Assembly: GCA_030704615.1 (NCBI GenBank)
Contig: CM060731.1
Span: forward strand, 20,460,001-20,524,000
Reading direction: 5' to 3'
Origin: Takakia lepidozioides
Taxonomy: Eukaryota; Plantae; Bryophyta
DNA: 64,000 nucleotides
In this document: positions 2,594 through 33,830 of the stretch, piece by piece
Position numbering within the stretch: the first letter of the stretch is position 1
Layout: each line of letters opens with the position of its first letter
The notes under the pieces: model-generated
The model's input: the letters and a program-made list of their open reading frames with translations, nothing else
Database searches by the model: none
What the model was told of the DNA's origin: nothing
Position numbers and translations under genes: made by a program

Positions 2594-2942
2594 TGTCAAG
2601 TTAAATAAGCACAGTGTGAAAACAGCTAGAATAAAACTAGTTATTTGTATTTAACACTTGGATTTAGGTCAAGTGTTAAATCAGGTGTCAAGTTTAGTTT
2701 GACACCTGGTCCGTCTTATCTTCACGAGAGCGGCAGTCGCGCGGCTCATCTTTCTCGAATTGAGCCTGCGCGACCGAGCTCCTGCATGCGTTTAGATCTG
2801 AGTGTACTCATGATGGGAGTGTAGGTTGTTGTGGGGTGAAGTCCCCATAGCTTGGGGTGCCCCTGGCTCGACTACTATTTCTAAGAGTGATGGTTTGGTT
2901 TTCATGTTTTGTGTAAACAGTGTGTTCGTTGGTTTTCTATCA
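2594..2942 (+). repeat. 5' LTR segment B (349 bp; lacks the first 87 bp of the full LTR)
   Basis: Matches 14180-14528 with 3 G/A differences counted by eye; ends TTCTATCA. Confidence 0.95.
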
Positions 2943-2958
2943 CTCGAGAAAGATGAGC
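2943..2958 (+). promoter_or_regulatory. Self-priming-type primer binding site
   Basis: CTCGAGAAAGATGAGC directly after the LTR is the reverse complement of GCTCATCTTTCTCGAG in the LTR (14330-14345 perfect; 2744-2759 one mismatch). No TGG-initiated tRNA-type PBS is present. Confidence 0.8.
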
Positions 2959-4454
2959 TCTTACCTGTGAGTGCAAGGTAGGAGTTGAGGGTTAGCACTT
3001 GCAAGATTACCTGTGTGTAAGTAGTGCTTAGTTTGAGAAGCATATCATTGAATGTGACCACAAGATTCAGCGTGCCCTGAAACGCCTGGAGGATGACGAT
3101 GCCGGAGCCACCACTGTTATTACAGTCGCTGAAGCTACCAAGTCACCAGAGGCTTTGGAGTACACAAGGAGAGACTTAAAAATGCAGCATGGAGCAGCAC
3201 TGGCAAGCTGTGAACGCTGATATCTGCACTACCACAACGTCCCTAGGATGAATACAAAGTGCCTGGAGTGAAATGGATAGCTGGAGAGCTGCTCAGGCCC
3301 ATACATTTTGGGAGTTAAAAGTCACATCTGTATGTTGAAGGCCCAATTCGCCAATGTGCGGAAGAGTGTGGGCATCCGAGTTTTCTAGGAAAGGGGGCCA
3401 GTGCTTGGGAAAAGCTGTCTACAAGTTTTGGAGCAGGTGACGGCCAGGCCTGCGGTACTTTGAAGACGATGATGTAGAGCTTGAAGAGGGTCTGGTTTCG
3501 TTGCTGGGGAAGTAGGTGGTACGGGCATGGAATCTGGAGGACCCCGGCTTGTACGTGGAGAGTTTCGATGTGCTCTTCCCGATCTTGCTTTCAGATGCCT
3601 TAGTTGGGTTGTGTGTTTGTTGAAAGGCCAGCTTCCAGTATAAAGATGCGGGTGTGGACTCTTCAAAGTAGTGGAGAGAAATGCGGGGTGCAGAGGTGCA
3701 AAGGGTGATCAAACTGAATGGAGAGGAGGTGTTAGTTATGGCCATGGCTCACTAGCTTAGTACATTGAAAGGACGCCGAAGCGAGGAGGGAAGGGGGAGG
3801 AAAAGGCAGGAAAATGTCCTCACCAGGTTGTTCGTCATTGACTTGCACGCCACCTCCCCAGCTAACTTGCACAGTGGCAACGTTCAGGCCATGGAAGTTG
3901 TCGAGCTCACTCAGCGGGTGACATCACTTGAGAAGCGTTAAGCTCGGTACCGGCAAGTCTTGCAGCCAAGATCTCGAATTGAATCGTCAGGCTGGAGATT
4001 ATGTGCGGTGAAAGTGGCAGAGAAGGTGGCCCGTCTAGAAATCTATGGCGCGCGACGTGCTGCCCTTTCTATTCCGAGTTGCTACTGTTACCAACCTTCC
4101 CGCCCCTTTATACATGCAGCGTGCACTCTACCTAGTTCCACCGATATTCAGTCAAGAAGTTTTGGAGTGAAGGTTCTAGGTTTCCTGGCTTCTATTATCT
4201 AACAGGCTTTTGGAGAGCTGAGCAGAGCCGGGTGGTAAGATCACTCCGTTTCGGATCATCCTGGCAAGACGTAGAGTTTGCAGTCACAAACACAAGAGAG
4301 ACAGAAATGCTCGAGTTGTCAGCGATTTCGTCCCTGAAGCCGAATTCGTGAAGCTTCTTCCGAGCTCTCTCGCTTCCATCATTGCAACAGCAAACCACAT
4401 AGTTTCGACTGGGTCACATTCTGGAGAAACGACTCCTTGATCAGTCCAGATCCT

Positions 4455-4728
<274 letters not shown>

Positions 4729-5223
4729 TGAGACAGCCGCCATAGCCCCTAAAGCCCATCCTTCAGCTCTGTACGCCCGCAATCAGTACGTCCGCTCTTG
4801 CCGCCCTCTCCAACGCTGATAAGCATATGCAAATTCCACCCCTGCAGGGAGAAAGCATGACCCAGGTGGAAAAGCATGTAAGGATAGGGGAAGTTTCCAA
4901 AGAGCTTCTCACCTTCATTTGAATTTTTAAATTTGAAAAGAAAAAGAAAAAAAAAAGAAAAAAAAACCCTTTTGATCTAAGTTAAAGGATTTAGAGCCTA
5001 ATTGGTCATATCTTTGGCAAATGAACTCCGTTTGACACAGTTTTTGAGGGGATAGCTGCAGAAAGGGGAAATCTACCTATCTAGATCTGGTTTTTGTTTT
5101 TGGGACTCTGCTAAAAATCTATGGAATTTTTAGAGTGTGAGTGTGCCATGAAAGATCCACAATCCTGTTTCTAGAACCTGTTCTGGTCTATATGAGAGAG
5201 AAATTGGTGGATGTACTCCTTGC

Positions 5224-5973
5224 ATGGCTGGGGGAAATGAGGACGTAATTGAAGGGCATGTCTCTTCTCTTAGTCTGTGCACACAAGGGGACAGGATTTA
5301 TGTTTCCCAAGGAACTCAGACTGATTTGAGTGGAGAACAGTTGGACGAGTTGATTGCATACTGGGAGTCAGGCATTAGCAGTAGACAACAGACTGCCGTA
5401 GTTGGCATTGAGGGCCTCAATATCGCCTTGGACAGTCAGAACTCTGTTGGAGCCAGCAGTTCTGCAGCTGTAGGTGAAATACCAAAGTGGTTGAAAGCTA
5501 GGCTTGGAACACAGCCAAAGACAGCCCCGGGGACCAAGGTGTTCAGCCACAAGGCCGTGGTGTACTGGAGTAGAGGAGCAGGAGCTACACAAGTTTGTGC
5601 AATCAGACAGCGTTGCAGCCGAACACGCTCTGCACAAGGCAACCACGAGCGGGGGTTCATTACCGAGGACAAGTTTGTTCTGTCTAAAGGGGATGCAATC
5701 ATTCGCAATGAGGACACCCGCAACCATCTCAAAGCTTTCGAGTTGAGAGACTATCAGACCCTACCTTTGTTTTTTTTAGTGTTCAGTGAGCGGGAGATAG
5801 GGGAGTATTGCTTTGTCTCTACCTGGCAGAAAGAGGAGGAGGGTTGGTTAGAGCGAGCTACTGTAGCTGGGGACAAGATTAGTGGCAGGTTTCTGGACAT
5901 AGATATACCTCCTACACCTTACCATCATGCAGAGCGAGGCACTTTGAGAGAAGTCTGGCAGTTGATAGCATAG
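5224..5973 (+). CDS. Extra ORF (249 aa) of unknown function in the retrotransposon, upstream of gag
   Basis: Intact ATG-to-stop ORF in the element's sense orientation; no family securely recognised. Confidence 0.55.
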   Translation: MAGGNEDVIEGHVSSLSLCTQGDRIYVSQGTQTDLSGEQLDELIAYWESGISSRQQTAVVGIEGLNIALDSQNSVGASSSAAVGEIPKWLKARLGTQPKTAPGTKVFSHKAVVYWSRGAGATQVCAIRQRCSRTRSAQGNHERGFITEDKFVLSKGDAIIRNEDTRNHLKAFELRDYQTLPLFFLVFSEREIGEYCFVSTWQKEEEGWLERATVAGDKISGRFLDIDIPPTPYHHAERGTLREVWQLIA

Positions 5974-6492
5974 ATCAGGATTAGATCTTGCTTGGTCGGG
6001 CTTCTATTCTTCCCCTCCATCTCTGTACTATTTTCATTACCTTGTACTTGTAGTTGCCAAAGCCTCTCTTGGTGGAGGCCAGTCAGTCCGGGGTTTTGGG
6101 CTGGGATATTCTGCAGGATTAGCATTGCAGCTGGATTTGGTGTGGGGGTGTTGATGTTTTGATTTCTTGTGTTTGGATCCCCCCCAACACCTGCATGCTT
6201 GACTGTGCGCCATGTTGGTTTTGTGTGGGCGCTTGCTTTCATAGGGATTAGGCCGGATTTGATCACCGGTCAATCCTAGAGTATGCTGTCAGTGGTGAGG
6301 CTGGAGTGATGACCAGCAAGACCACCAGTGTTTCTTCTATGGTGAGGCTGGGTTGATGACCAGCCAACCATATGAGTTCTTGCGATGGATGCAGGTGCAG
6401 GTGCCCTGAGTCATTGGGATATGACCCTTAAAACTGCAACAGGTGCCCACCCGTGTCACTATTAGATTAGTACTAGAGCCTTATAGTGTCAC

Positions 6493-8041
6493 GTGGAGGA
6501 GGTGCACATTGTGAGTGTCATTACGGAGTTACCCAAGGGTGTTGAGGGGAGTACGGCTACAGGCAGTAACAGTGAGAGTGGGTTCACAAGACGAGGTATT
6601 CGGTTCAGACCACCTTCACCGCCACCCTCAATTACTGTAGAGTCAGACACAGACTCGGAGGCTTCATCAACAGGTGTGCACTTTCATTCGCCATTGTTGT
6701 GGGACGACATGGAGGAGATGTATGGAGCTACCAAGGGGCCTCGTAGGTACTCTGGAGCTGTGGGCACAATCGAGTTGGATGACTTTATCCAGGAGTTCGA
6801 CAGCTGGTGTGATTTGCAGCAGATGCGCAATCCACAGCTATTCACCCCATTCATGGCATGGAAGGGACTGTTCCAGCATTTGGAAGGCCGCCTATGGACG
6901 ATTACCACGAGTTCAGGCGAGGACATGAAGCAGAGATTGAGGAGTGGAGGATGTATTGGTCACCTGACTACGTCTCCATTACTCGAGGCATGACGCGACC
7001 AGTAGCTGCATCCGTACCAATAGCTCCCACTGCCAGCACTAGTAGTGGAGCAGGTAGTGCTGGTACTTCTGCAGGTGGTACCAGTTCAAAAGGTGCTACT
7101 ACTCCTCCTGCCACAACTACAACACATGTGCCTAGATTCAACCCGGTGGTGGAGTTCTTCCAGGAGTTGCGGAGGAACTACCAAGGTGTACGGACAGAGA
7201 AGCTGCGAAGTTTGCAAAACTTCCAGCGCAAACCCAGTGAGAGCCTGCGAGAGGCGTACACTCGTATGAGGCGCTTGATACGTGTGACCCGAGGGGTTAC
7301 TGAAGCTCAGACAATCCAGTTTTGGTATGGAATTCTGGACAAGGAGCTCAAGAGAAGGGTGCAAGATGCAACCCTGTTACAAGCAGCCCAACCCACATTA
7401 GCAGATGTGTTTCTGCTGGCTGAGCGGATTGAGCTCAACATGGTGGAGGACGAGTTGTTACAATTGGATTTGGCAAAGACATGCCTGTACGGGGCACAAC
7501 TGTCAGCCCACAGGCACAAGGGACTGCCCAACAGCGTGGTCAGGGGGGCAAGGTTGCCCAGCCCAAGTTCCATGGAGCTTACAGGGGACCTCAGGTGCAG
7601 AGGCCCGTGGCATCTTTTGCAGGCCAACAGCAACCAGGGGTGATATGTTGGACATGTGGAGGACCCCATGTCAAAAGAGATTGCCCAGAGAATGGCAGAA
7701 GGCCGGCACAAGCACAGCCTGCACAGTTGCAGTGTGGGCATTGTGGCAAGTATGGGCATGTAGATGCCCAGTGTTATGACTTGCATCCTGAGTTGCGCCC
7801 AGGCCAGTTCCAAGGGAACAATGGTGGCCGGGGGCGAGGTGGACCAGCCCAAAGAGGACGAGGTGGTCGGGCACGAGGTGCAGGCCAAGGGCAAGCTCCA
7901 CATGGCCAAGGACGCGGAGGTCAGGGTGTTGACCAAGGCATGGCCCAATCGGCTTCAGCAGCTAGAGCAGAGGCTCGCTGCCATGGCTATAGTTCAGGCG
8001 GTACCGGCTCCCAGGCGGGATGGTCCACCTCCTGCTCCTGA
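6493..8041 (+). pseudogene. gag: Gag (frameshifted) with two CCHC zinc knuckles and an RGG-rich tail
   Basis: Capsid-like segments across ORFs 6493-6993 and 6858-7643 (LRSLQNFQRKPSESLREAYTRMRRL). CWTCGGPHVKRDC and CGHCGKYGHVDAQC lie in ORF 7481-8041. Confidence 0.85.
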
Positions 8042-8689
8042 GGGAGGAGATATGGGAGGCATGGGATTCATGTGCGGAGCAGCACTACCACTAGAGCAGG
8101 TGGAGTCTGCTGCAGCCGTGACTCGAGGAGCAGCACGAGTTCCTGAGCCACGAGGTGCAGAGGTGGAGTTGGATTCACAACGTGGGGAGGCAAGCCGTCA
8201 GGCGAGGCTGCCTCAGTCATTCACCTTGGCGGAGACAGTATCAACGCCATCCATGGCACCTAGTTCTCGCCCGACTGTTACGAGGCGGAGGTTACTATGC
8301 CATTGGGGAGAGCTACACGTGCAGCACTGACACCTGCTACCAAGGCTAGTGCAGCCGGGTGTGTTATTGGGGCAGCCACCTCTGTGTGTCAAGCCCCACT
8401 GTTCTCGGCAACCATGATTGCGACGCCGGGGGTGAGACCAGCTGCAGTGTTCAGACTAGCAGCAACTCTCTATGAGAGTGGGGAGGTCACTTCATCTTCT
8501 GCGGAGTTAGTGGAAGGTGCAGTGTTCGACTAGCAGCAACCTAATGAGAGTGGAGGGTCACTTCATCTTCTGCGGAGTTAGTGAAGGTGTAGTGCAGAGG
8601 GATCCTCGGATTTGAGGGTCAAGACTTGCCACGGCTGCGCCATGGCAAGTTGCAGCTGCCAGGTTAGACAACCAGGGGGGGGTGGGGAG

Positions 8690-9120
8690 GACCAGTTTTC
8701 CTTTGAGTGGACCGCAGGCAAGAAGTACCGGCCACTTGCGGGTCTTGTTGACTCAGTAGTTCAGCCACTGATGTTGGGGCAGACTTCTATTTATTGCAGG
8801 TTTGGGGCCTCATGGAGCGGATTGGAGCCTTGTCCTTTCCAGATACAGACATCTCTGGGAGGATCAGAGCAGCTACGCCGGCATGACACGGCCCAGTTTG
8901 GCTATTATACTGGCAGCCGGATCATCCTGTAGATGGCTCAGTGATGCGAGCCAAGGCATGTGACAGACGCGGTCTCTTACGATGTCCTTGTTGGTGGGAG
9001 CAGTGTTATACCCCTGGGCTTCACCCTGGATTTCTGGGAGGAGTCAGCATCCTACAGCCTGGGATGGCAGTCCGGTTATGGTCGCCGTGCACAGCTCCCT
9101 GTGACATTCATTGGGGGGGT
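8690..9120 (+). pseudogene. Retropepsin-like aspartic protease domain (degenerate)
   Basis: LVDSVVQPLMLG at ~8744-8779 (DSG-like site altered) and a downstream YDVLVG motif; it lies where protease is expected, after gag. Confidence 0.65.
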
Positions 9121-9459
9121 ATTGCGCTTCCTCAATCGTGGCAAGATGGCCGAACACTACCGCCTTCACAGCTGCAGTTATTTGGCCCTGGAGAGTTGCT
9201 TGGAAGGCAATGCCCATGCAGAGGATGTGCCACCTCCAGCAGAGCAGGATGACATGCATGGTACGGCGAGTGCCCTGCCATTTGCTCACACTCCCGTTGT
9301 GGGGTACGAGCAAAGGATTTGCAGCAGCTGCTGAGGACGGGTGCAACAAGCTTGGGTAGAAGCTTTTGTATCGTCAGGAGAGGAGGAGAGTTCGGTGATT
9401 GCACCAGTGCCACCTCAGTTGTCGCCATTGGACACCACACCTCTTGTGTGGCAACGGGC

Positions 9460-10410
9460 CGGATGAAGGCATTTGCCTTCTGGACTGTTTGGCGGGATCA
9501 GCACGGATTGGCTGCTGTGCTACAGGCAGGTGTGCGGGTAGGCGTTACCTGTATGTGGAGAGGGATGAGACTGCACGACGCGTCTCACTGCGCCATGTGG
9601 CTCAGTTGGTACAGCAGTACCCTGACTTGTTGCCTGTGTCTGCAGTTCGTGGATACCAACAAGCCTTGCCAGCAGACATTTCTTGTGGGGGCGCAAGATT
9701 TGGAGCAGGTTGGCTCCATTGATCTGGTAGTGGCAGGTTTGGCCCTGCCAAGGGCATTCATCAGCCGGGCATGGCAATGGATTGCGAGACTCGAGGACGG
9801 GTCTGTTTTGGAGATGGTGCGGATTTTGCGCTGCTTGCAGCTTCATCAAGCTGTATCTCCAGCATACATCTTGGAGAATGTGCCACTGATGGGTGATTCT
9901 CGGGCCAGGGTGATGGCCAGTGTGCATCAAGTCCGGTCGTGGCTTGGGTCAGCAGTGTTGCTGGATGCAGCTGCAGTGGGGTCACGGGCTCATCGTCCAC
10001 GACTATGGTGGACTAACTTGATGCCACCCGCACTGCTCAAGCGTGCATTTGATGGGGTGCAGCGGCCAGCACACCTCACCGTGGATGGCATTTTGGACAC
10101 AGGAAGGCAGTCTCAACGTGTGAGACACGATGACCGTTCGCCTTTGGCAGTGGTCAACAGGGTGGGTCAACCACGAGCAGCATTACCTACACTGCTCAGC
10201 TTCCCAGGATCCCATGCTTTTCGGGATGGTGGACCTGGCCTCCTGTGGGATGCTCAGTTGCAGCAGTTAGTGGAGCCTAATGCCGACGAGCGAGAGCGGG
10301 CTATGGGGTTTTCCACTGGGACCACGGCGGTGCCTTCTCTTTCTGAGGCATCACGTCGTCAGGTGTTGGGGCAAGCAATGGATCTCAATTGCTTGACCTG
10401 GATTGTCAGC
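9460..10410 (+). pseudogene. C5-cytosine DNA methyltransferase domain, DNMT3-like, embedded in pol (frameshifted in this copy)
   Basis: Motifs across frames: I (LFGGIST), II (YLYVERD), IV (DLVVAG-W-PCQG, with WPCQG at 9740-9754), VI (YILENV), VIII (AHRPRLWWTNL), IX (ERERAMGFSTGTT), X (RRQVLGQAMD). Confidence 0.9.
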
Positions 10411-10779
10411 TTGGCTATGGCTGAGCAACGTAGAGTGCGGAGTGCACTTCCCTTGACGGTCTCTCTGCCTACCGAGACGGTACAGGCAGCGAGTGTGGGG
10501 CGAGCCGTGAGGACCACGAGGTGTAGACATCCATGGCACACGTGGGAGGTGCTCGAGGTTCAGAGGGAGTTGGCAGCGAAGGCAGCTGTGATGGATGAGG
10601 TTGGGGATTCTTCTCGGGATGAGGAGGTTCTCAATGATGAGATGATGGGGCAGGATGAGGCCTTGTCATTGACTGAGCAGGAAGGGGGTACTGCTCAAGA
10701 GGTTGCAGCATAGCAACCACGGGACGCGTCCTCTACCTCTAAGCCCACTGGACTTAAGGTTGCAGTTACGGAGGACAAT

Positions 10780-12539
10780 TGGGAGCCTGACATTGGACCC
10801 ATTGTCACCGGAGGAGAGAGACGACGTATACGGCGGTTCCTGAGGGCTTACAGGAATTGCTTTGCCTTCAGTTTGAAAGACTTGGGAGCACTGAAGGGTC
10901 AAGAGATCCGTATTGAGTTGGCCACTGACACGCCAATCTTTCGGAGACCCTATAGATACAGTGACATGGAGAGGTCTTTGATTCAGATGAGGACTCAAGA
11001 TCTCTGGGAGGCAGGTTTGGTGGAGCTCTCTGGTGGAGAGTATGCTTCAGCCACAGTGATGTCTATGGCAATTGGACGGAGAGACGTATGTGCGGTGATT
11101 ACCGGCCTGTAAATCGTCAGACCAAGTCCGATAGGTATGCCATGCCAACACCAGAGGAGATCTTTGATGCCATTGGGCATTCCAAGGTCTTTAGCACGTT
11201 GGATTTACGATCCGGATATCACCAGTTGCCGATCAAGGAGGCGGATAAGCAAAAGACGACATTCTGGGGGATCAATGAGCACGGGAAGGATTGCCTATAC
11301 CAGTGGCGGTTCTTACCATTTGGGCTTAAAAACGCTCCCGCTGAGTTTCAAAGAGTCATGGACAGGATTCTAGCAGGGGTGGAGTTTGCTCGGTGCTACA
11401 TAGATGACATCATCATCTTTAGTGCTACGGTGGAGGAGCATGAGAGACACCTTCAGGGGGTATTTGAGCGCTTGAGGACGCACGGATTGAAGTTACATCC
11501 GGGCAAGTGCAAGTTTTTCCACAACCAGATTGAGTATCTGGGTCACATGATATATCCTGGAGGATTGGGGGTACAACAGACTAAGGTAGAGTCCATTGCA
11601 CAGGTTCCACGCCCCACGGATGTGAGCCGAGTTCGAGCTTTCATGGGGTTAGCAAACTATTACAGACGGTTTGTTAAGGGATTTAGTGCCATTGCAAAGG
11701 CTCTAACCAAGCTGACCAAGGTGGACCAGGAGTGGCAGTGGGAAGATGAGCAAGAACAAGCTTTTCAAGAGCTCAAGGCGAGGTTGACCTCGGCGCCCAT
11801 CTTGAGACGACCTATCAGGGGGCGTCCTTTTCAGCTGCATACAGATTGGAGCATGCTGGGGCTTGGAGCGGTGCTCACACAGGTGGATGATGAGGGAAGA
11901 GAGTTCGTAGTGGCTTATGCTAGCCGCTCGAACAATGCTGCAGAGTCTAAGTATAGCTCATATGAGGGAGAATGCTTAGCTGCAGTGTGGGCCGTGGCAC
12001 ACTTCAGGTGCTATCTATACGGCAATCTCTTCACCCTTGTCACGGATCACCAACCACTCAAGTGGTTGATGGAGTCAGACAAGCTTACGGGGAAGCTTGC
12101 ACGGTGGGCACTCATCCTTCAAGAGTATGACTTTCAGGTGGTGCATCGACCGGGTTTGGTCAATCGAAATGCAGATGGGTTGAGTCGCAATCCATGCACG
12201 AGCCAGCAGGATGACACTGGAGCTCGGTGGCATGGTGAGACGGACGAGGAGATGGTGCCCGGATGGCATGCATCTGCATTTCTGTGTATCTTGGCAGCGG
12301 AAGGCCAGGTTGGACCTACAACAGGGATGACTGTAGATCAAGTGTCTGAGGACCCTGAGGCCAGCAATGAGCAGGGTGGCGCCAAAGATATACATGAGGA
12401 TTCAGTTGTGTTGGACTACCTCCGCAGTGGAGACACGGCAGCCACTATGACTGCCAAGGAGAGGGATCGGATCCTACAACGAGCCAAGAGGTTCAGGTGG
12501 GAGGGGACACACCTGCTCCGAGTGTGGGAGGATGGTTGA
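10780..12539 (+). CDS. pol: Reverse transcriptase and RNase H (short deletion/frameshift near 11060; in-frame TGA at 12537-12539)
   Basis: MCGDYRPVN, LDLRSGYHQL, LPFGLKNAP, YIDD, and RNase H LHTDWS...YEGECLAAVWAV...TDHQPL. Confidence 0.95.
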
Positions 12540-13832
12540 GTGAGGATTGTGCCTCACCCAACACAGCGGGCACGGTTAGTGCGGCATGCCCATGAGGAGT
12601 TGGGGCATTTTGGGGTGCGACGCACTCATAGTCTACTGCAGGGGCAGTATTGGTGGCGTGGTATGCACACAGAGGTGCAACAATTTGTGGCTAGGTGCAT
12701 GGTGTGTGACAGGGTGCGTGCTTCATTCAACGCCCCTACTCCACAATTGCACCCTCTTCCGATCATGGGATTGGGCTACAGGTGGAGTCTTGACTTCGCA
12801 GGGCCGTTGCCACTGACCATGCGTCACAACAAGTACGTGTTGGTGATGGTGGAGCACTTCTCCAAGTGGATTGAATTGGTTCCATTGCCTGATAAGGCTA
12901 GTGAGGGAGCTGCGTATGCATTTCTGGATTGTGTGCTTAGCCGATTCGGTGCTCCAGCTGAGGTACTCACGGACCAAGGGAGAGAGTTCTTGGGGGAGTT
13001 TCAGGCTTTGTGTGACAAGGCCTTGATAGACCACCGCACCACTTCTCGGGATCATCCTGAAGCCGATGGCTTGGCAGAGAGAGTTGTTCAGACAGTAAAG
13101 AGGGGTTTGCGCAAGTATGGCTTGCAGAAGGGACACCTAGGAGATTGGGACCTTCAGTTACCCTGGTTAGCCATGGGCTACAGGTTCAGCAAGCAAGCAT
13201 CACTTGCCTCCTTTTCACCATACTTTCTTCTCTTTGGCCGAGAGCCGGATTTGCCTACATCCATTCGCAGAGAAGCTGCTACAGTTCTTAACCTTGACGA
13301 TCCGGACGTGTGGGCACGTGCATGTGAGCAGCGTGCAGAGTTGTTCAAGAGAGTCATGCCCATGGCTTTCGAGAACCTTGCCATTGCACAACACCGTGAT
13401 ACGTTGAGGTATGCTACCATACGTAGTGGGGGCTATCGTCCTGGGGTTCGGAGATTCAACCCTGGTGACTATGTCTATCTGCAGCAGACTGCTCCTACGA
13501 CCCTGGATGTGAATGCAGGACGTGTTATTTTGAGGGTTCGAGAGGTCTTGCCCTCAGGCGTCTTGGTCTTGGAGGGTCGGGATGGCATAACTTGGAAGGA
13601 CCATGTGCGTAATTGTGCGCCATGTCACCTTCCGAATGTTGATGGTAGGATTGACCCAAACCTGGTAGTGGTATCTGCAGGTTTGAGGTGCATGTTGTGT
13701 GGGTCTGCTAAAGGGGCAGCCACCATGCTGGTGTGCGATCGATGCTCTAGAGGTTGGCATATGGGATGCTTGACTCCACCTCTTGAGATGGTTCCGGATG
13801 GGGATTGGTTATGTCCACATTGCATTGGATAG
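12540..13832 (+). CDS. DDE integrase with HHCC domain and C-terminal PHD finger
   Basis: HEELGH...CMVC zinc-binding motif; SLDFAG / LTDQGREF / GLAERVV catalytic triad; C-terminal CMLC...CDRC...HMGC...WLCPHC (C4HC3 PHD, ~13689-13829). Confidence 0.95.
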   Translation: MRIVPHPTQRARLVRHAHEELGHFGVRRTHSLLQGQYWWRGMHTEVQQFVARCMVCDRVRASFNAPTPQLHPLPIMGLGYRWSLDFAGPLPLTMRHNKYVLVMVEHFSKWIELVPLPDKASEGAAYAFLDCVLSRFGAPAEVLTDQGREFLGEFQALCDKALIDHRTTSRDHPEADGLAERVVQTVKRGLRKYGLQKGHLGDWDLQLPWLAMGYRFSKQASLASFSPYFLLFGREPDLPTSIRREAATVLNLDDPDVWARACEQRAELFKRVMPMAFENLAIAQHRDTLRYATIRSGGYRPGVRRFNPGDYVYLQQTAPTTLDVNAGRVILRVREVLPSGVLVLEGRDGITWKDHVRNCAPCHLPNVDGRIDPNLVVVSAGLRCMLCGSAKGAATMLVCDRCSRGWHMGCLTPPLEMVPDGDWLCPHCIG

Positions 13833-14077
13833 TGGGAGTGGATACAACCATGGAAGGCTAACAAGAAACGCAAGGCCCAGCTACTAGGAGACCTTGAACA
13901 CACGAGGTCCTGGCTCAAGTTCACAGATTGCAAGATGGCGACTAACGATGGGGCTACTCTTGTACCCGGCCTCTTGGTCTATAGAGTTTGAGTACAATAG
14001 GGACAGTGATAGAGGACTTAGTACGGCTGTGGCTATTACATCTTGTAGCTATCTGGAGGTAGAGGGACCTATCCACC

Positions 14078-14092
14078 AGCTAGGGGGGCGAT
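14078..14092 (+). promoter_or_regulatory. Polypurine tract
   Basis: AGCTAGGGGGGCGAT immediately precedes TGTGGCAG, which defines the true U3 start at 14093. Confidence 0.8.
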
Positions 14093-14528
14093 TGTGGCAG
14101 ACTACTTTATTGTGCATATATGTGTGGTGTGGTTTGGACAGCGATGTAGTTGTGTAGCGATATGTATGCGCACGACAGCTGTCAAGTTAAATAAGCACAG
14201 TGTGAAAACAGCTAGAATAAAACTAGTTATTTGTATTTAACACTTGGATTTAGGTCAAGTGTTAAATCAGGTGTCAAGTTTAGTTTGACACCTGGTCCGT
14301 CTTATCTTCACGAGAGCGGCAGTCACGCGGCTCATCTTTCTCGAGTTGAGCCTGCGCGACCGAGCTCCTGCATGCGTTTAGATCTGAGTGTACTCATGAT
14401 GGGAGTGTAGGTTGTTGTGGGGTGGAGTCCCCATAGCTTGGGGTGCCCCTGGCTCGACTACTATTTCTAAGAGTGATGGTTTGGTTTTCATGTTTTGTGT
14501 AAACAGTGTGTTCGTTGGTTTTCTATCA
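14093..14528 (+). repeat. Complete 3' LTR (436 bp = A 85 bp + GC + B 349 bp)
   Basis: TG...CA ends, follows the PPT, and contains the palindrome GACAGCTGTC at 14174-14183. Confidence 0.9.
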
Positions 14529-14529
14529 T

Positions 14530-14614
14530 TGTGGCAGACTACTTTATTGTGCATATATGTGTGGTGTGGTTTGGACAGCGATGTAGTTGTGTAGCGATAT
14601 GTATGCGCACGACA
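14530..14614 (+). repeat. Second copy of LTR segment A (first 85 bp of U3) appended after the 3' LTR
   Basis: Identical to 14093-14177; ends GACA and is followed by the TSD AGTG. Confidence 0.95.
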
Positions 14615-15580
14615 AGTGACATCTAATGAAGATTATAGCCTAACTCATTAATTTTTACAGAGCCTAATCCTAAATGGCTCGCACTCGAAGCATGTGTTCG
14701 AAGATACCTCTGGTCACCACAACCGCTTACTACACTATCTACACCCAAGAAAATGGATATGTTTTGAGAACGATCGAACATGTCATCAAATATGTCAACA
14801 TGTTACTTGTAGCTTTGCTCGATCACCTTGATGCCCATGAAGCCTCAAATGACTTCGACATCAAAACATTTCGTCGAACATTATATATATATAAAATTGG
14901 ACTTTTGTTCAAAAGTCTATATTTTAATTATTTAAAAAACCGGAACTGGAGGTTATGAAAGAAATCAAATAACCACCCAACACTGCAAAATTCCAGTGAC
15001 GACAAAGTCGGAACTGGTTTTAACAGAGGCGACAATAGGTTCCATTTCTTTCGTACGTTTCGTTACGGCTAGCAAATGATGGTGAAAGCGCACTCGGAGA
15101 ATCACCTCTTCAATTGCACGAGATTCCCCCTCTATCGGACTTCTAGTGTTCTGGATCACGACAATTTCCGAGAAGAATTGTACTACCTAAAGCATCTTGT
15201 GCCTCTCCGCATGTAAAATTGGGTTCTGAAGATCTTGCACCAGGAATCATTGGAATGAGGTTTCCAAGAAAGATCTGGAGTGTTTGGTATGTTTATTTCC
15301 ACCCATCTCATCTGTAATATGGATTTAGGGAAATGAGAACATAGGCAGTTTAAAGCTGGTAAGTGGGGAGGAGGGACGTTGAACGGCGCAGAGAATCAGG
15401 CATTGATCGATCTTTCTCGATGCTTTTCATGCAGGGCGATGGGGTTTCAAATCTGGGATCGGACCCACTTGTCTGTTATGCACCAGAGTCAGGGCAAGGG
15501 TATGAGTTTTGGTACATCCACCATCACCACTGTCTTTAATGGAGGAAAAAAAGAAACATCAAAGGGGAGAGGGCCAAACG

Positions 15581-16205
15581 AAATGTGGTCTCATGGAGTC
15601 ACAGCATATGCTCAGCATGGGTGTGGGAGGGAGACCCTGCAACTATTTGAACAAATGCAACAGGAAGGCTTGAAGCCAAACATAATCACCTTCATCTCTC
15701 TTTTGTCTGCCTGTAGCCATGTGGGCCTACTGCCTGAAGGCTGTCACTACTTTGATTCTATGAGTCATGATCATGACCTCACCCCTACAGTGGAGCATTT
15801 TGCCTGCATGGTGGATCTTCTTGGCCGTGCAGGACAAGTGGATGAGGCAGAGGATTTCATAAAAAATATGCTTATGTGTTGCTGCGCACTGGTGGTTTTG
15901 CAGAAAAGTCTGAGCACCAGATTTCAGGCATACTCATATACATGAGATTCTTTGGATTGACAGTTGGTTGGTTCCTCCTTGGCTGAAAGCAGAGCTGACT
16001 GCCATGTGAGAGAATGGAGGAGAATGATGTGGGAAGGGGTGAAGCAAGACCAGGTTGCATTCATTTGAAGGCGGACATGGGCAAAGAGGTCGGTGGTGAA
16101 ATCATCAAACGGGGAATCACAGCAGATGTTATTCTGAACACTATCCTGGTGGACATGTATGCCAAATGCTGCAGCATCGAGGATGCAAAGGGAGCGTTCG
16201 ACACT
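15581..16205 (+). pseudogene. PLS-class PPR gene fragments
   Basis: AYAQHGCGRETLQLFEQMQQEGLKPNIITFISLLSACSHVG...CMVDLLGRAG, and ILVDMYAKCCSIEDAKGAFD. Confidence 0.85.
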
Positions 16206-16739
16206 ACTACTATGGAGCTCTCAGGTATACTCCTTGAACCTCTGACTGCTGGACTTGACTTTTTAATCTTAACACTGTTTGGGGCAAATCTTTATATGCC
16301 AGAATCAATGAGATTTACATGGTAGTTCTTTCCACCTGCGTGAGCCTTCGTAGTGGACCTCACTCTATCGTCTTATCACCACCTTCCCCCTGCCCTTTCT
16401 CAAAGCTTGGCAAGCATATGGCTGCAAAGCTACATCAAGAAAAGTGTAATGGATTCTTTAGTAGCTCTTGCACACACACTCACCTTCATTTCACTCTAGA
16501 GTCTGAATTGCTGCGATTTATTTCACATTGAAATTGGAATTGCATGCCAGTGAAGTGTTCCTTGATCTATTCATTGTGTTTTTTCTGGTGCAGACTCCAG
16601 ATGCCAACTGGCTCCAAAAGGCTACAGCAGGTATTCCAAGTTGGCAGGTGAGTTCTGTTCGTGTTTAATAGAAGAAGTCAATTTCTGGGTAGGTAGGCGT
16701 CAGATCATCCATAGGTCCTCACCCATGTCACAAACTGGA

Positions 16740-17905
16740 AACAAGCTCAGGGAGTCTTATGCCTAACTTCATTTTGTTTTCATGCTTCTGACATGGGCTT
16801 AGACACTTCCGCGTCCAAGTCAGCTGCATCTAGCAGGGTCAGTTCTTCCTGCCTAGTATTTAGGTACTTGAAAATCTCATTTACATTCTCTGACATGACA
16901 GCCTGTTCAACAGGACGGTCTTGCTTCCAAGAAATATCGATCATCTTAGGGCATCTGGTATGAGGCATGCGATTCAACTGACCCCACCACCTGACCTTGA
17001 ACTCATCACGTCAAGAGCTCTAGGGTGGTACGCCAAAATCGCTCTGAACAGCCACATTAGCTGTTCTAGAGCATGCTGACATGCTCCCCTTGGGCACCGA
17101 AAGCTGAATGGATTCTGAAGTTTTAGCAATGGAGTTGCCTTCCCACACGGAAGATGTGCACTGCAAAGTAGGCCTAATAACGTTACAAAGCATGGTCTTT
17201 TCAACTTGAGAATCAATTCCTCTGCATCGGAAAAAGTGAGTGAGACCCAAAGCTATGCATTTAACTGCTTGACCCACTTTTTATATATGTGGATCCCAGT
17301 TACAACTGTAGGAAAACTTAATAGCGAGACATGTGTAAAAAGGGAGCACATGGATCTATTCGCTGCCCCCATGTACACTTGAGATCCTCTCCTCCTCCCC
17401 ATGATCATGGAAGGCCACCACCACGCATATACTAACCTTCTCCATAGCCAAAGGACCTCTTTGCACAACAATCAACTCTTGAAGATAGGATCCCCTAGGC
17501 CCGCAAAGTCATCCGCAGACATAAGAGCTGGTATGGTGGCATCACCCACCTTCAACCCAAATACCTCGCTTTCCACATCTTCAAGGAGCTGATTAATGAA
17601 AACATTGAAGAGAAGTGGGAGAGGGTACAACCTTGACACCTTGGTCAAAATGTCACAAACACTAGACTTCTGGCCATTGACCATAACATAGCTTTTGGTG
17701 TTCCATACAGGTTGTGACCAATTTGACACATCTTTCTCCTGACCTAGAAGACCACAGATGAAGCCATAGCCCATTGCGTAATTTATACATCCAGGATGAA
17801 GACAAAGGTGGGTTTTCCTTCTTTTCTCCTTCCCTGAATAGTCTGGCTTAGGTTAAAGATATGGTCGACGCAAGCCCTATTTCTCCGGATGCCCATCTGA
17901 CTTCT
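16740..17905 (-). mobile_element. Degenerate non-LTR (LINE) reverse transcriptase region
   Basis: PLLFNVFINQLL...ALMSADDF (RT SP.LF and YADD-like motifs); ACVDHIFNL upstream; many stops. Confidence 0.75.
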
Positions 17906-18887
17906 AGACTCCAAATCAACCTCTTATTATCGTACAAAACAGCTTGCCACCTGCACTGAGAGAGAGCAAGAAAAGTTTATAATGGAGGTGTCCATACGAG
18001 TGGAAATGCAAGAGGGATAATTGATGCGAGCATGTAATGTGTGTATGCAGATAGTGAAGCCTGAGACTACAAAATATTAGGATCAAAGAACATCCGATTC
18101 TGGTATTTTCATATATTTTATCGAAAAGAATCACCGGTTCCGGTTAATAGTAAGAACCTCAAAGAACCGGCGGTGTTCATCAAATAAGCAGCGGGTCTTT
18201 GGCGGATCTTTGACAGTTTTCGCTCATTATCTCAAAACAAGCGGCTTCATAGCTGAGGCCACCCACAATTGTAGGTGCTCATTCACAGGAGCATATGGTT
18301 GACTGCCGGCCCAACTAAGAAAACTATGGCTGGCCCTCCGGTTCAGTTTCTAACTAACCCAACACAAGTTAGTGATATGATTTCGCCCCGTTGACAAGAA
18401 GACTGGAAAACCTGGTGTAATTTCTTCCTGGCATTCGATTACGAGCCAAAGCTCGATCAGAGTGAGTTTTCCCCCCAATGCACGCCTAGTAATTTCAGGC
18501 TGCACTACAATGTGATGTTTAACAGCTTCATATTCTCTTTATTTTAACTGTCTAGAACTGCTCTTCTTCCTTTACCCTCTTGCATATGGAGTAATACTTT
18601 GGCGATCATTCACGGAAATGGCTGGATAATGCAGAGCAAGTTCAGCACAACGACGCCGGGTCAATATTGAAGGGGCTGTGTTGGAGTTGGGACCTCTGGA
18701 AATATCTCTGAACATTACCTGTGAAGGCTACACAGATATTTTGTGGGTGACCTTGCCACCTTCTTGCTGCATAGTGCATGGTCTCACTGTCACCTCTGAT
18801 GTTTTACTAGGATCTAGGACAGGAATGCCTGTATTGTGAGGGTTTCAATGTCATAAGGCCCTAGTGTTTCTTTCTTTTGTGTTCTAC

Positions 18888-19644
18888 CTAGTTAATCGAC
18901 TCTATATCTTGGAAACAGGACCGCCCTGTCAAACAGGCTAAGTCCTGGCAGAAGAGAGTAGAAGAGATTCTCAAGGACCTGGACCTGGATCCGCAAGTCT
19001 TGACCCTGCTGGATAAATCTGACTTAGAGGCTGTAGTGTCCTCAGCCATGTCTGTTGCCATGAGATTGTCTGATGAAAATGAGGTTAGGCAGAAAACTTC
19101 CCTGAACTTGTTTCCAGTCAGTGACATGGGGGAGGACATCTTGGATGACCTCAAGGGTCTACCCACTCTCGGCACTAGACTGAAATTTAAACTCAGGGCA
19201 GGAAGCCTACCTTTGCACAGCAAACAGAAGCAAAGAGGAAAGGGAGAGTGCAATTGCCCGCAGTGTGGGCAATCTGAAGACAGTATTCACTTTCTGATAC
19301 ACTGTCCGGGGTTCTCTCACCAAAGAGACGCTCTCTTCAATTCTATCAAGGGAATTGTGCCTGTACCCCTGTTTAACAACTTTGAAAGTCTCGAGGCTGA
19401 GCCAAAAGCCCAGGCCCTCCTGAGGCCTAGTTTTTGGGCAAATCACACACAGCAGATTGATGCTTGTGTGAAGGGATTTCTAGAGGATATCTGGAAAACC
19501 CGGATTAATTCTATATATGATGGTAAGTCACACTACCAACCTCAGCCCCTGACAGAGGTAGGTTCTGTCCCTTTTGTTCCCGCTCAAACTGGGCGCATGG
19601 TCAATGGCCACAAGGCTATGGCAAACAACGTCTTATGAGTACAA
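18888..19644 (+). mobile_element. 5'-truncated LINE insertion with a 15-bp TSD
   Basis: ORF2 C-terminal CPQC...HFLIHCP zinc motif; TCTTTTGTGTTCTAC at both 18873-18887 and 19645-19659. Confidence 0.85.
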
Positions 19645-21178: not shown

Positions 21179-21715
21179 TTGCGCTCTTGTGAGGCTGTGA
21201 GGACACTATGTCAGGCTGGACTTCTGAAAGAAGCAGTGAATGCTTTGCACAGACGAGGCATTTCAGCCGACGTCAATTACTATGTCTCTCTCTTGCGAGC
21301 GTGCATCAGAGTTGAGGACCTTGAAATGGGAAAGCAGGTGCATGCACACATCATCCAAATGTTGAGGTCTAATATTTGACAAAATGCCTGAACGAGATGT
21401 ATTTACATGGACCATAATGATGACAGGATATTCTGAGCACAGTTGTGGAAGGGAGGCTTTCGAGATGTATGAGCAAATGATACGGGAAGGGGTGACATCC
21501 AACAATGTCACGTTCATTTGTGTTCTCAATGTGTGTGCCAGCCTAGGAGCCTTTGGGAAGGGCAAAGAGGTACATGCCAACATCATCAAAGCTGGACTTA
21601 CGCCATACATTAATTTGGAGAATACCCTTGTTAACATGTATGCGAAATGCGGGAGATTGAAGGATGCACGTCAAGTGTTTGACAACATGGCTAAAAGAAA
21701 TGTAGTCTCTTGGAA
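21179..21715 (+). pseudogene. Truncated PLS-class PPR gene (N-terminal part)
   Basis: TLCQAGLLKEAV...; MPERDVFTWTIMMTGY...LVNMYAKCGRLKDARQVFDNMAKRNVVSWN, after which similarity ends. Confidence 0.85.
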
Positions 21716-23123
21716 TAAAATTTTTATTCCCTTCCCTTTCCTCTCCACCTTTTGTCTGCTCCAATCATTTTATGATGTATATTTCGGAAACTGTTGCTAT
21801 ATTCTTACTTCATTAATAAAACATTTCCCTCACCCCTTTTAATAGCAATTATATGGGCTCTGATATACACTATGTCAAAATCATAAATCTTATAACTCCT
21901 CTTCAATCTCTCTCCTCCATTCAAACTAAGTTACCATTCATCACTGGTAGTGCAAAGCATCGCGAAGCCCTAGTCATATACTATCCATTTTACAAGTCCT
22001 CTTACCATATTGATACCATTAATACTCTACCAGGTCATACCTACCACCATACCCTTACCAGCCACTTGAAGAATCAGAGGGGAACCCACACACACACACA
22101 CTCAACACACACGCACAAAAGATTGACTGAAGGAGACTCTCACAAGCACATAGTGGGAAAGGTACCTGAGTATCTTGTTGCGGGCGACTAAAATTTGTCT
22201 GAATAGGGGTGCTTATAGTTGGGCAGTTGTCAGCTACAGTGGTCAGCTTGCCCCATTGACGTGTAGATGCTGCTTACTAGTTTACTTAGGTCCGCTCTAC
22301 CAGAATCCAAGTGATTCTATTCGTTGGTTTTTCATCTTGGTGATGCAATTGCTGAATGGCCGTGCAGCTGATGAGGAAGATGATGGGTTGTTGCAGCTTA
22401 ATTGATTAGTTAGGGTGCAGTCTTTTCAGGTGGGCCAGATTTGGAAGAATGATCACGCACGAGGAAGGAGTAAAGTGCCGGGAGAGAACCGCAATGGAGG
22501 ATGCTCAAGTGGGGGCAAGGGACTTGTGAGATGTAGTACAATCCCTACCACGCAGCAGCCAACCTTCCTATATATGACCGAGCCCTCCGTCATCTTTTCA
22601 TTTTATTCACAGGCCAGGTCCTTCGAGCTGTTCTTTCTTGCCGGCTGCGTAGTCCTCTCCTCCTGGACTCAAATCTCCATCAGCACGTAGTCCTGACACC
22701 TGAGCCTACAACCGAACTCTTTCTAGACTTCTAGGAGGACTTTGAACTCAATCCTGGGACCTTGCAATGGTTTTAAGCATCTATGCAGCGGTGATGTCTT
22801 GTATACATGCCAATCGTGCTGATGACGAGGTGATCAGGAACTACGCAGCTCTGATTCCTTTGAGCTCCAGAACTTTTGTGGCTGCACACAATTATGCTTG
22901 AACTGTGAAGCAACAAGGCTCTGGATGCCAGGAAGTTCTGCAAACCATTGCTGCACCACAAGCCTGTCCGCTGAGCCTTTACCAGTCACTGTTGTCTCTG
23001 ACCAGAAGTTGGTGGTCACGCAGCATAATTTGGTACGCACTCTATTAGAGAGCGGGTACTGAAACTCGTCACCGGTCGAGGATCTATATTATTAAAGCCA
23101 GCAGTGACTAGAGCTGCGACGCA

Positions 23124-25238
23124 ATGCCGACTATCTTGCTTCGAGCCGGCATCACTGGAAGTCTGTGCAGTGAGCTCCTTACAACAGGCGCCTGCGAGCT
23201 GCAACAGTCGAGTAGGAGCTGTTTGGGCGGTCATGGATTGCATGCGAAGCGTCTTCTATCAATGAAATCACGCAGATGCCCAGTAAGGGGAAGGGGGGGA
23301 GCAAAAGTGGTAAACGTGAGGGCGAAAATCAACTATGGAGGCCACCTCACCAAGGAGCGCAGCGAAGTGAGTTTGGAGTCCACTGGTGTTGTCACTGATT
23401 CCGGGCGTTCGTTTCTGTCAACCGAGCAGAAAGTGTTCGATGTGGTTGCCAAGCAAGTGGCCATGGCGGCCAAAACTGTACGCAGCCGGCAGGATGTGAG
23501 GCCTCCTGACTCCCCTGCACAGGAGCTGCTGGACGAGGCTTACAGTCGTTGTGGGGAGGTTTGCGCTGAGTATGCGAAGACTTTCTATCTCGGTCAGCTT
23601 GCCTCTTACTTGCGTTTCTGTAGAGATCTTATCGGCACTGATCCCTATTCAGATTCATCAATTCAATTTGGGTTCTTAAGTCCGATCTGCGTTCCCCATC
23701 CCTCTGATATTCATGAACAAGTAACAACTAGCTCTCACAGTATACGACATGTGGACTCACTCACTTTCTCTTTCTCAGGAACTAAGCTTATGACTCCCGA
23801 GAGGCAACGAGCTATTTGGGCTATCTACGGTACGCGGGATCACCCTGTGCCTCCTTCCTGCATCTCTTTTCTTCTAGATTCATTCAGCTGCAGCGCGATA
23901 GGAACATACTGTAGGAGCTCCATCAGACCAGCTGACCGTGTATTGAGTGTGCGCGGGGTAGCTGTGCAGTCTGGTGCAGGAGAACAGATGAGCTTGTGGA
24001 TGGGCCTAACGCGCCCCGCATCACCCCCACGGCTCTGGACCGTTGGGAGACCAGGCTGGAGGATATTTTCCGACATCAGCCCTTTGACATGCTGGATGCT
24101 GCTCTCGCTGACACTATCAACAACTTCCCTATTGACATTCAGGTAGCTCCCGGGGTGGTCGAGGAAGCATCGTGCTAAATATCTATCAAGAAATGTTCAA
24201 TCTCTTTTGCAGGCCTGGACACTCTCATCAGATTCGCAAACTCGCTAGCTATAATAACTCTTGAAAATTAGTTGCAAACTGCCTAGTGATGGATGGATCG
24301 GATTGTAATCCACTGCTTACAGGCTGCAAGACTGAGAGGGTGTTGTGGTGGTTGTTGGTTGAAGCCATTCAGAGACATGATCGATGGCATGCGGATGGAC
24401 TTGGTGAAGTCCCGATATGCAAACTTTGATGAGCTCTACTTGTACTGCTACAATGTGGCAGGCACTGTGGGCCTGATGAGCGTGCCTGTCATGGGCATTT
24501 CTCCTGAGTCCAAGACGAGCACTCACAGCGTGTACAATGCGGCTTTGGCTCTTGGCATTGCGAATCAACTCACCAACATCTTACGTGATGTTGGAGAAGA
24601 GTAACCCTTCTAGCTTCTTCGCACATTGTAGTCAGATCGCCATTTACTGAAATACCCACTGTAGAACTTGTTCTGTTTTGTGGCATCAGCTAAATAGACA
24701 TCTGGTGGGGCTGCAGTGCACGACGCAGAAGGGTATACCTGCCACAAGACGAGCTTGCCCGCTTTGGATTGTCGGACAAAGACATCTTCGCAGGGATTGT
24801 CACAGACAAGTGGAGGGCCTTCATGAAGGAGCAAATAAAGAGAGCACGAAATTTCTTTGTGGAAGCTGAGAAGGGAGTGCTGGAGCTCGACAATGACAGC
24901 CGTTGGCCGGTATGTGACTCTCCTGGAAACTCTTCCTCATTGCCAACCTTCATCGTGTTGCGGATCAAATATGATTCTAGACCGTGTCTCGACTGTGTAT
25001 GCAAGTGTGTGCGTTCTTGCCTGGCTGAATGCGAGTAAAATCGTGGGTGCAGGTGTGGGCATCGCTGACCCTGTATCAACAGATTTTGGATTCCATTGAA
25101 GCAAATGACTACGACAATTTCACCAAGAGAGCTTATGTGGGCCAATGGAAGAAGATGATGTCTCTTCCTCTTGCATACAACCGTGCCATGCTGCCACCCC
25201 CGTCAACTGCACCCAAGGTGCTGTTGAGCTCTGCATGA
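23124..25238 (+). CDS. PSY: Phytoene synthase; exons 23124-23592, 23779-23829, 23970-24142, 24365-24600, 24717-24909, 25053-25238
   Basis: [66 protein letters not shown]; GT-AG introns keep the frame; transit-peptide-like N-terminus. Confidence 0.95.
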
Positions 25239-32477: not shown

Positions 32478-33321
32478 AGATTATTTCAAAGTATCCACTT
32501 CAGTCTGACCTGGTGCTTCTTTCTTCTTCTTCGATAAAAGCACTCAGCATTGTAGCAAAACCAATTCAATTCGTTTGCTGGTTTGGAGTAGGCTGCTTAA
32601 TTATCTTCAATTTGGAAGCACTGTCTACCTGCAAGCTAGAAAATGGGGGAAGTGCCTCGCATTGCCACTGTGCAACGTCAGCCGGGCTATGACACTCTTA
32701 ATCTATGCCTTTTCTGTTGGTTATGTCCAAGTTGTTCTCCCCAGCAAGCCTGTGGGGCTCTGTTGAATTCAGCGATGCACTGTCAATCACCCTGGACGAG
32801 GGTTTTTGTTCTCCATTTACGGGAATGTAATTTGGTGGCAAGGGAAGGAATTTCCATCCAAAAGAGTCTGTTGCATTCTTCACCGTCTGAGACTGTGGCT
32901 CTTGTTTCTTACAGTAGGGAGAATACTGAAAACACACATTGTGTTGAAGCTCTCAGTGGCATGGCTTTACTCCCACACACACAGAGACAGACTCATACTT
33001 GAGCGTGCTTTGACTTTCAGGTTGTGGTAAAATCAAAAAATCTGGGAGGGATGATGTTGTCTTGCACAGTGCTAGTTGTCTTAGTTTTTAGCTTGATCAT
33101 GTACATGCAAATGGAAAACATAGAATGAGCGGAATGGTAGAGACCATCCTGTGTGGACGGTGCAGGGAGAAGGGGGTTTATAGGTGGAGGAAAGGAAGGA
33201 TTTAGGGCCTACATGTCCTTCCCAGAGCTGGCACACAAGGGTTCCTTTCTCCAACCTCACTTAAGCCCCTGTTCAAAGTAGGCAGGTGTGTGTGTGAGAG
33301 ATAGAGAGATGGAGAGAGAAT

Positions 33322-33830
33322 GTACTCATAAGACATTGTTTGCCGGAGCCTTGTGGCCATACATCCTGCGACCAGTTTGGGCTGAACAAGAGGGAACAGA
33401 CACCACCTATGTGAGGGGCTCACTCCGATAGTGGTGCTTACCTTGGTATAAACAATTAGTTCGGGCTTTCCATTATCCTCCAGAAAGCCATTCACACAAG
33501 CATCAATCTGCTGTGTGTGAGCTGCCCAACAATTAGACCCCAACAGGGCTAGGCCTTTAGGCTCAGCCTTGAGATTTTCGAAGTTGGTGAACAGAGGTGC
33601 GGGAGTTGATGTTGAGAATCCCTGGGACAATGTATCAGAAAATGGATGTTATCTTCAGGCTGCCTGCACATGGTGCAATTACAATCTCCTTTTCCTCTCT
33701 GCATCTGTTACTGTTCAAAAGGGCTGAGAGAGAGTGAGTGAGCGAGATATACACAAGAAGGCAGTGATGCAAAATCTTAAGCTTTTCAACCATAAACCCT
33801 ACTAGATCTAGCCCTGCACAGTTCGCCATT
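33322..33830 (-). mobile_element. LINE 3' end, same family as 18888-19644
   Basis: LFTNFENLKAEPK...HTQQIDACVNGFLED and the same terminus CTTATGAGTACA. Confidence 0.8.

Follow-up and report, generated by a model that had tools for sequence, protein, structure and literature searches.

The window is the whole stretch of 64,000 nucleotides of Takakia lepidozioides DNA analysed in this study. It contains, on its + strand, a 12-kb Gypsy element at 2594-14614, flanked on both sides by the target-site duplication AGTG (2590-2593 and 14615-14618). The element is composed, in order, of a repeat A, a primer site, a long 5′ region, gag, protease, a DNA methyltransferase (DNMT) domain, reverse transcriptase (RT), RNase H, a DDE integrase and a PHD finger, after which follow a polypurine tract (14081-14091) and the repeats B-A-B. 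The left copy of A (2594-2942) starts with TGTC, the left end of the element, and is identical to the right copy (14180-14528) at 346 of 349 positions. The first copy of B (14093-14177), with the polypurine tract immediately 5′ of it, is identical at all 85 positions to the terminal copy (14530-14614), which finishes in GACA, the right end. In four runs, which come from two samples, the family's depth goes no further than 14614. Because the A copies differ at only three bases and the B copies at none, the insertion is young. Despite this, its coding region is broken many times, chiefly in the 5′ half; a template already damaged may have been mobilised in trans, or else some of the breaks are errors in the assembly.

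Outside the element, the window contains a cluster of PLS-class PPR genes (15337-16325, 21366-21842, 46218-47270, 53500-58440 and 61300-64000), some of them with DYW ends and most of them frameshifted; the segments 56933-57395 and 63522-63984 form a 97% inverted duplicate. An intron-containing gene at 23112-24600 (+) may encode a phytoene synthase, judging from how its first exons read, and its first exon gave no Pfam match. An intact single-exon gene for a nepenthesin-like aspartic protease lies at 37970-39481 (-). LINE-end-like fragments, comprising an RT piece and a C-terminal zinc-binding part, occur in both orientations at 17472-19638, 28945-29712 and 33202-33648, and a possibly MITE-like structure at 44012-45052 has AT-rich inverted arms (189 bases, 82% complementary) and short repeats inside. 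One host gene that was searched finds its best named match in Sphagnum, at 38%, and no close match among seed plants, which together with the style of the PPR genes fits a non-seed host, probably a bryophyte.

The element's 5′ region carries an insert at about 3148-4843 (+; up to 4975 in a wider delimitation), in which ribosomal protein L2/L8 gene fragments (PF03947 matches at 4410-4722) are followed by an A-rich run. This insert is low-copy, with a depth of ~500-2800 in run X2 of the same species compared with at least 170,000 from 4844 onward. Its contig depth is ~8x that of the single-copy flank in the same run, and a small subfamily may carry it. The family's high-copy 5′ region also contains an extra open frame of 273 codons (5152-5973, +), which had no Pfam match and no counterpart in the 80 related loci (best 80 of 213, see below) and which may be a family-specific accessory gene. 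All of the retroviral-type domains are on the + strand. The broken gag (6709-8264) has a capsid-like part (PF03732, E 3e-4) and zinc knuckles (a weak zf-CCHC match), and can be aligned to the natural ORF1 proteins P0005 and P0171. The aspartic protease (8696-9112), also broken, has DSV as its active-site triad, whereas its relatives, which match PF13650/PF13975, have DSG. The RT and RNase H (10714-12130; YIDD at 11397; PF00078, PF17917, PF17919) contain one frame change near 11055, and the closest solved relative of the RT region is Ty3 Pol (E 1.5e-71). Directly after a stop at 12537-12539 comes the DDE integrase (12540-13832; zinc-binding part and core, PF17921 and PF00665), which ends in the PHD finger (PF00628, E 2e-10). 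We tentatively take this finger, by motif comparison, to resemble readers of unmethylated H3K4; it would steer integration to chromatin. A chromodomain after the integrase gave no match in the window or in the relatives examined, the PHD finger standing in its place.

The DNMT domain (9465-10419, +) is of the DNMT3 type of C5 cytosine methyltransferases, with motifs I-X unpermuted. The earlier note had claimed such motifs in order, with the catalytic cysteine at 9746-9748, and all of them were found in the canonical order: FGG (9488-9496), YVERD (9552-9566), WPCQG (9740-9754, the Cys codon being TGC at 9746-9748), ENV (9874-9882), AHRPRLWWTNL (9988-10020), ERERAMGF (10288-10311) and RRQVLGQAM (10354-10380). 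What that claim left unstated is that they are spread over three frames, with six frame changes near 9485, 9503, 9540, 9680, 9738 and 9810. At no fewer than four of these six breaks the window differs in length from other copies, among 12 copies listed of 83. The window copy itself cannot make the enzyme. The motif match is nevertheless not due to chance, as the domain of an intact relative aligned to 9400-10500 with 328 bits, against at most 23 bits for codon shuffles (n=200). The search for PF00145 that had been suggested gave a divided result, since the domain was undetected in the window's own fragments but was detected in natural relatives. The stop-free C-terminal part (9814-10425, 204 residues) matched 74 proteins among 2696 candidates, most of them with PF00145; the top matches, from Marchantia polymorpha, Calypogeia fissa and other assemblies, are 73-76% identical, and Sphagnum proteins rank lower among the 74. 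The nearest Atlas cluster of the domain is Streptophyta PF00145.

The proposed similarity to DNMT3 was borne out in an intact relative, P0002, for which DNMT3A was the best solved match (E 6e-12), ahead of DRM (1e-8) and bacterial enzymes (4e-4 or weaker). Its structure model has a mean pLDDT of 87, and DNMT3A/B were the first structural matches (E 1.6e-18). The features of the DNMT3 family are present, namely linear motifs I-X, PC, ENV, RxR and the DNMT3 fold, so that the element domain has its catalytic motifs and fold in common with host enzymes such as DNMT3A/B and, from the accessible part of its description, Physcomitrium DNMT3b (PMC6453930). However, it is only 20-23% identical to DNMT3A/B, has a longer stretch between motifs VIII and IX and, unlike host DNMT3, is without DUF3444, PWWP and ADD domains. 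DUF3444 is given as a C-terminal feature of host streptophyte DNMT3 genes in the available text of the same paper (PMC6453930), and no Pfam match to it was found in P0003, P0005, P0171 or ORF1 of locus L023. The observed/expected CpG ratio is 0.45-0.60 in the element versus 0.44 in the flank, so CpG depletion is not stronger in the element.

To place the window copy in its lineage, metagenome contigs were scanned with the integrase-PHD frame, which gave 213 relatives; the best 80 were kept and form 62 groups at 98% identity. The DNMT is present in 34 of the 37 distinct loci among these 80 that have enough DNA upstream of the integrase, and the main group of loci shares 78-88% identity with a Sphagnum protein across ~125 residues. 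A profile search of 1.84 billion representatives gave 574 clusters at E 1e-30 or better, which were inspected in part only, and 209 of 223 full-length natural domains retain the catalytic Cys, the Glu and both Arg. In a second organism, one contig of 5009 bases covers 9201-14097. No relative of the element was found in viral contigs. Relatives bearing PF00145 are found in Marchantia, Calypogeia, Sphagnum and Closterium, and the Closterium protein also has the DNMT before the RT. FastTree was the only program used for trees, which cover 70 of 260 DNMT domains (element domains only) and 34 RT-RNase H sequences; the searches had yielded no host DNMT3 sequence and no protein labelled as Klebsormidium. 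In the RT tree, the DNMT-before-RT elements form one clade with a support of 100 (10 of the 34 rows), in which the window adjoins Marchantia.

A second architecture, RT-RNase H-DNMT-integrase-PHD, was seen in locus L075, one of the 34, in which the DNMT lies between RNase H and integrase, and in proteins such as P0059, P0064 and P0202. It is the commoner one among distant relatives (88 versus 17 stored proteins with both domains), and its only named member is a protein of the chlorophyte Haematococcus. Another relative, P0204 (1417 residues), combines PF00145 with PF05869, a Dam-type adenine methylase, which recalls the dual-methylase elements of a 2026 preprint. Together, the Marchantia, Calypogeia, Sphagnum and Closterium relatives and the Haematococcus architecture point to an old and large clade.

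The dN/dS analysis called for in the earlier note revealed purifying selection on the DNMT, with a value of 0.11 between the intact loci L023 and L028 (protease 0.10, RT 0.04). The window compared with four loci gave 0.10-0.11 with synonymous sites near saturation (pS 0.72-0.73 against Sphagnum-like loci), and pairs of more distant or decayed copies gave 0.22-0.30. Among dead sibling copies the ratios are near neutral (DNMT 0.7-1.1), and RT behaves alike (0.7-0.85), as would be expected if copies decay once they have inserted. In run X2 the summed contig depth is 0.73-1.19 million for the DNMT and 0.95-1.17 million for the RT, and a contig over the right junction and flank has a depth of 60; although these depths are not copy numbers, they indicate a very large family that keeps its DNMT domain. 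Thus, the domain does not occur in this copy only: the 34 loci, the named relatives and a depth equal to that of RT support the conclusion that it is part of the element lineage and not a one-off capture.

As to the claimed order of protease, DNMT and RT, a protease-like region does lie upstream of the DNMT and the RT downstream, but an in-frame TAG at 10711-10713 parts the DNMT frame from the RT, which goes on in the same frame. This UAG, followed by CAA CCA (10711-10719, +), closes the Gag-protease-DNMT frame and is likely a programmed readthrough site. In the intact locus L023, a Gag-protease-DNMT frame of 1369 codons is followed by one TAG and then, in frame, by 1047 codons for RT, RNase H, integrase and PHD finger; the continuous frame from gag to integrase for which the earlier note had suggested a test thus exists as far as the DNMT and is interrupted by a single stop before the RT. 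L028 shares this stop. Among the best 80 of 213 relatives, a stop followed by CARYY was present in 30 of 36 distinct loci at 330-415 bases 5′ of the RT, mostly in frame at 375, as compared with five of 936 control windows, and many database proteins terminate 77-165 residues past motif X. The sequence in most loci, UAG CAA CCC, is one base off the strict CARYYA. According to the available text of a study in plants, a UAG with CAA UYA after it is leaky, with 6-32% readthrough (PMC2754532). Judging from this context, the methyltransferase is likely made with every Gag, and the RT and integrase only with a minority of them. The earlier idea of an enzyme within the RT-integrase polyprotein therefore has to be modified: the two are linked through a likely readthrough stop, but the DNMT closes the Gag-side frame and would be far more abundant than the RT. 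Gag-level expression of the DNMT is not universal, as DNMT and RT are not separated by a stop in the distant relatives P0154 and P0155.

Besides the window, the complete layout A-internal-B-A-B was found in loci L005, L012, L037, L060 and L073. Among the best 80 of 213 relatives, the 3′ ends are B-A-B in 17 groups and B alone in 22 (~14 and ~20 when shared flanks are merged on visual inspection); copies with B alone may derive from one-repeat circles or from recombination between the B copies, and some may be due to collapse in the assembly. Eight of the 11 elements with both ends (the window and 10 loci), three of the eight being of the B-alone type, have an exact 4-bp duplication at TGTC…GACA (AGTG, AAGG, TCTC, CATA, CATA, TACA, TGTG and ATTA); of the remaining three, one has a mismatched duplication and two have none. 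The internal joint from B to A, GACA-GC-TGTC at 14174-14183 in the window, is a palindrome that amounts to the two element ends joined by two bases, and is the predicted attachment site of the integrase. The form GACA-NN-TGTC recurs in the loci and also in the divergent L023 and L028, which otherwise have different repeats, and relatives have ACGACA-NN-TGTCA or decayed forms of it. Four to five bases from the cut lies a CpG, which is CG in nine of the 15 listed sites and the product of CG deamination in the other six, and these 15 sites span subfamilies with saturated synonymous sites.

The primer-binding site (2942-2958, +) has a 17-nt exact complement inside the right copy of A and does not evidently correspond to a tRNA. 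The complementary stretch at 2744-2759 (+) is the predicted self-primer and a likely transcript start. In the folded RNA, their pairing has a z of -3.6, with two of 200 shuffles as good. The self-complementary stretch is 17 bases long in both the window and L005, 16 bases in L023 and 8-13 in four decayed loci, and analogous primer pairs of different sequence occur in L005, L023 and L060; priming thus looks tRNA-free and self-primed. As the polypurine tract precedes B and the primer site complements A, an ordinary BA-internal-BA cDNA is to be expected, and the integrated form would be a permutation of this cDNA cut at the palindrome. Within each of five old copies, the A pair has diverged to about the same degree as the B pair, as if both had been renewed at insertion. 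At two of 15 A-to-B junctions (L008 and L012), filler or additional bases of the polypurine tract are present, which is what joining of ends de novo would produce. The mirror layout A-B-A-internal-B, with B ahead of A, was not seen at any of 13 distinct 5′ ends; since a symmetric circle should also yield this layout, either the cut would be biased or the mirror copies would have been lost.

The closest described element is KnitGypsy-Dnmt3 of Klebsormidium nitens, a Gypsy element with a Dnmt3 domain and DIRS-like repeats (de Mendoza et al. 2018, PMC5890265). As far as the accessible text of that study describes it, the two have in common the Gypsy order protease-RT-RNase H-DDE integrase, a Dnmt3-like domain in the coding region that is intronless and unpermuted and keeps the catalytic residues, the repeats A-coding-B-A-B, and purifying selection (Ka/Ks under 0.2 there). 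However, the domain of KnitGypsy-Dnmt3 is described as sharing the Pol frame, whereas here the DNMT ends a Gag-side frame before a conserved UAG; a conserved stop interrupts the DNMT-RT frame in the clade of the Takakia element, and an uninterrupted one was seen only in P0154 and P0155. The PHD finger, the self-priming site, the internal palindrome and the 4-bp duplication are not mentioned for KnitGypsy-Dnmt3 in the same accessible text. Because the repeats are arranged alike, the Takakia element is probably a land-plant branch of the KnitGypsy-Dnmt3 kind and not an independent invention. SymbioDIRS-Dnmt3, again from what is accessible of PMC5890265, shares a retrotransposon-borne Dnmt3 domain and split repeats, but has a tyrosine recombinase in place of the DDE integrase and target duplication found here.

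Several other groups were considered for the element. Membership in DIRS/PAT was rejected on account of the rve and H2C2 domains, the 4-bp duplication and the lack of a tyrosine recombinase match. Troyka, with CG…CG ends and 3 bp (PMC12440569), disagrees with the TG…CA ends and 4-bp duplication, and AGTG and the other duplications do not fit the NCGN given for Phygy in the available text of PMC6317226. Complementarity between the primer site and the repeat of the same element, seen here at the level of sequence, is also reported for the self-priming Gypsy elements Tf1 and Tcn1 in the accessible parts of PMC7175516 and PMC6317226; unlike these chromoviruses, as described there, the Takakia element has a PHD finger, permuted repeats and a methyltransferase. 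A PHD finger in a green-lineage Gypsy polyprotein is shared with Chlamydomonas Gypsy-7a and REM1, for which the available text of PMC9940879 states neither a methyltransferase nor split repeats.

We propose that the element RNA primes itself and that reverse transcription would give the two-repeat cDNA BA-internal-BA, whose outer ends would be joined, either in a circle or by the host's repair once strand transfer has taken place. The integrase would then open GACA-NN-TGTC in the left repeat to give A-internal-BA-B, and a one-repeat circle would give A-internal-B. The Gag-linked methyltransferase, carried in the particle, would methylate the element's own cDNA and so pre-mark new copies as look-alikes of host heterochromatic DNA. 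Taken as a whole, this reading (a Gag-level DNMT3 likely methylating its own cDNA, RT and integrase made by readthrough, and an integrase that cuts a palindrome inside the long repeat) seems to us fairly probable. The domain order, the catalytic residues, the fold in an intact relative, the selection, the UAG context, the layout, the ends and the duplications are observed, and to these we add self-priming, readthrough, end joining and cutting at the internal site as proposed steps. Its least certain element is the substrate. We favour the element's own cDNA because the Gag linkage would put the enzyme in the particle and because the related SymbioDIRS enzymes were shown in yeast to methylate CG de novo, according to the accessible part of PMC5890265; the same text reports no methylation in yeast by the Klebsormidium domain, a result that its authors call inconclusive. 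A bolder version, which we advance only tentatively, holds that a DNMT3 at Gag stoichiometry methylates the cDNA, that the integrase ignores the cDNA ends and opens the CpG-flanked internal palindrome, that circles are productive and that the element's own methyl mark may choose the cut site.

Selection on the DNMT could also reflect another job, either methylation in trans of older copies or of the host chromatin surrounding the insertion, as a self-limiting form of silencing, or reading or marking of the CpG beside the attachment site as a guide to the choice of repeat. Gag-level expression would leave much enzyme outside particles, the CpG near the cut persists as CG or its deamination product across subfamilies, and a strand-biased mark could explain the absent mirror layout. 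However, this CpG may simply belong to the recognition sequence of the integrase, and we consider the proposal unlikely. The single orientation and the precision of most A-to-B junctions would likewise be explained if the permuted repeats were copied through RNA, as in split-repeat DIRS/PAT elements, with the B-A junction as a splint and the integrase acting on ordinary linear cDNA ends; the available text of PMC5890265 attributes this same layout to DIRS-type elements. Such copying fits poorly with a primer site and polypurine tract at the standard places for a BA repeat, with junctions that can include polypurine-tract bases, and with B copies as alike as the A copies (in the window and in five loci), a likeness not guaranteed by passage through RNA; we regard it as quite improbable. 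That a functionless host DNMT3 fragment or nested insertion was merely caught in the window copy, as the six breaks, the host gene fragments elsewhere in the copy and the ratios of dead siblings might suggest, is extremely improbable and already contradicted by the equal DNMT and RT depths in the same species, the 34 of 37 loci, the low dN/dS between intact lineages (the neutral values of dead copies hold for RT too), the missing DUF3444 and the single clade in the RT tree.

A 2019 opinion paper held that land plants such as tracheophytes lack transposon-encoded DNA methylases (PMC6338049). In the accessible text of PMC5890265 the Klebsormidium case is interpreted as an acquisition specific to that lineage, and two subsequent papers from de Mendoza's group, in the portions available, say 'streptophytes' with reference to the 2018 study. 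Neither these two nor three papers on bryophyte methylation describe land-plant members in their accessible text. The literature searched yielded no account of members in land plants, and none of either the readthrough stop or an internal attachment site, although closed-access papers, the large supplement of PMC5890265 and repeat libraries may hold some. The earlier suggestion that no land-plant lineage had been described agrees with this search, and the relatives found here are in land plants. It stands out from the known kind mainly by its range in land plants, by the position of the DNMT on the Gag side and by the anatomy of its integration.

Since Marchantia is a genetic model with methylation mutants, the question of why a transposon carries its own silencing enzyme becomes testable. 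The repeat anatomy makes this a natural example of a DDE retro-integrase apparently working at an internal site. Circles of cDNA are usually held to be dead ends. Annotation tools that seek two equal terminal repeats would be expected to miss such elements. If the circle reading is true, an old LTR clade of the green lineage, abundant in non-seed land plants, would have left the standard retroviral route.
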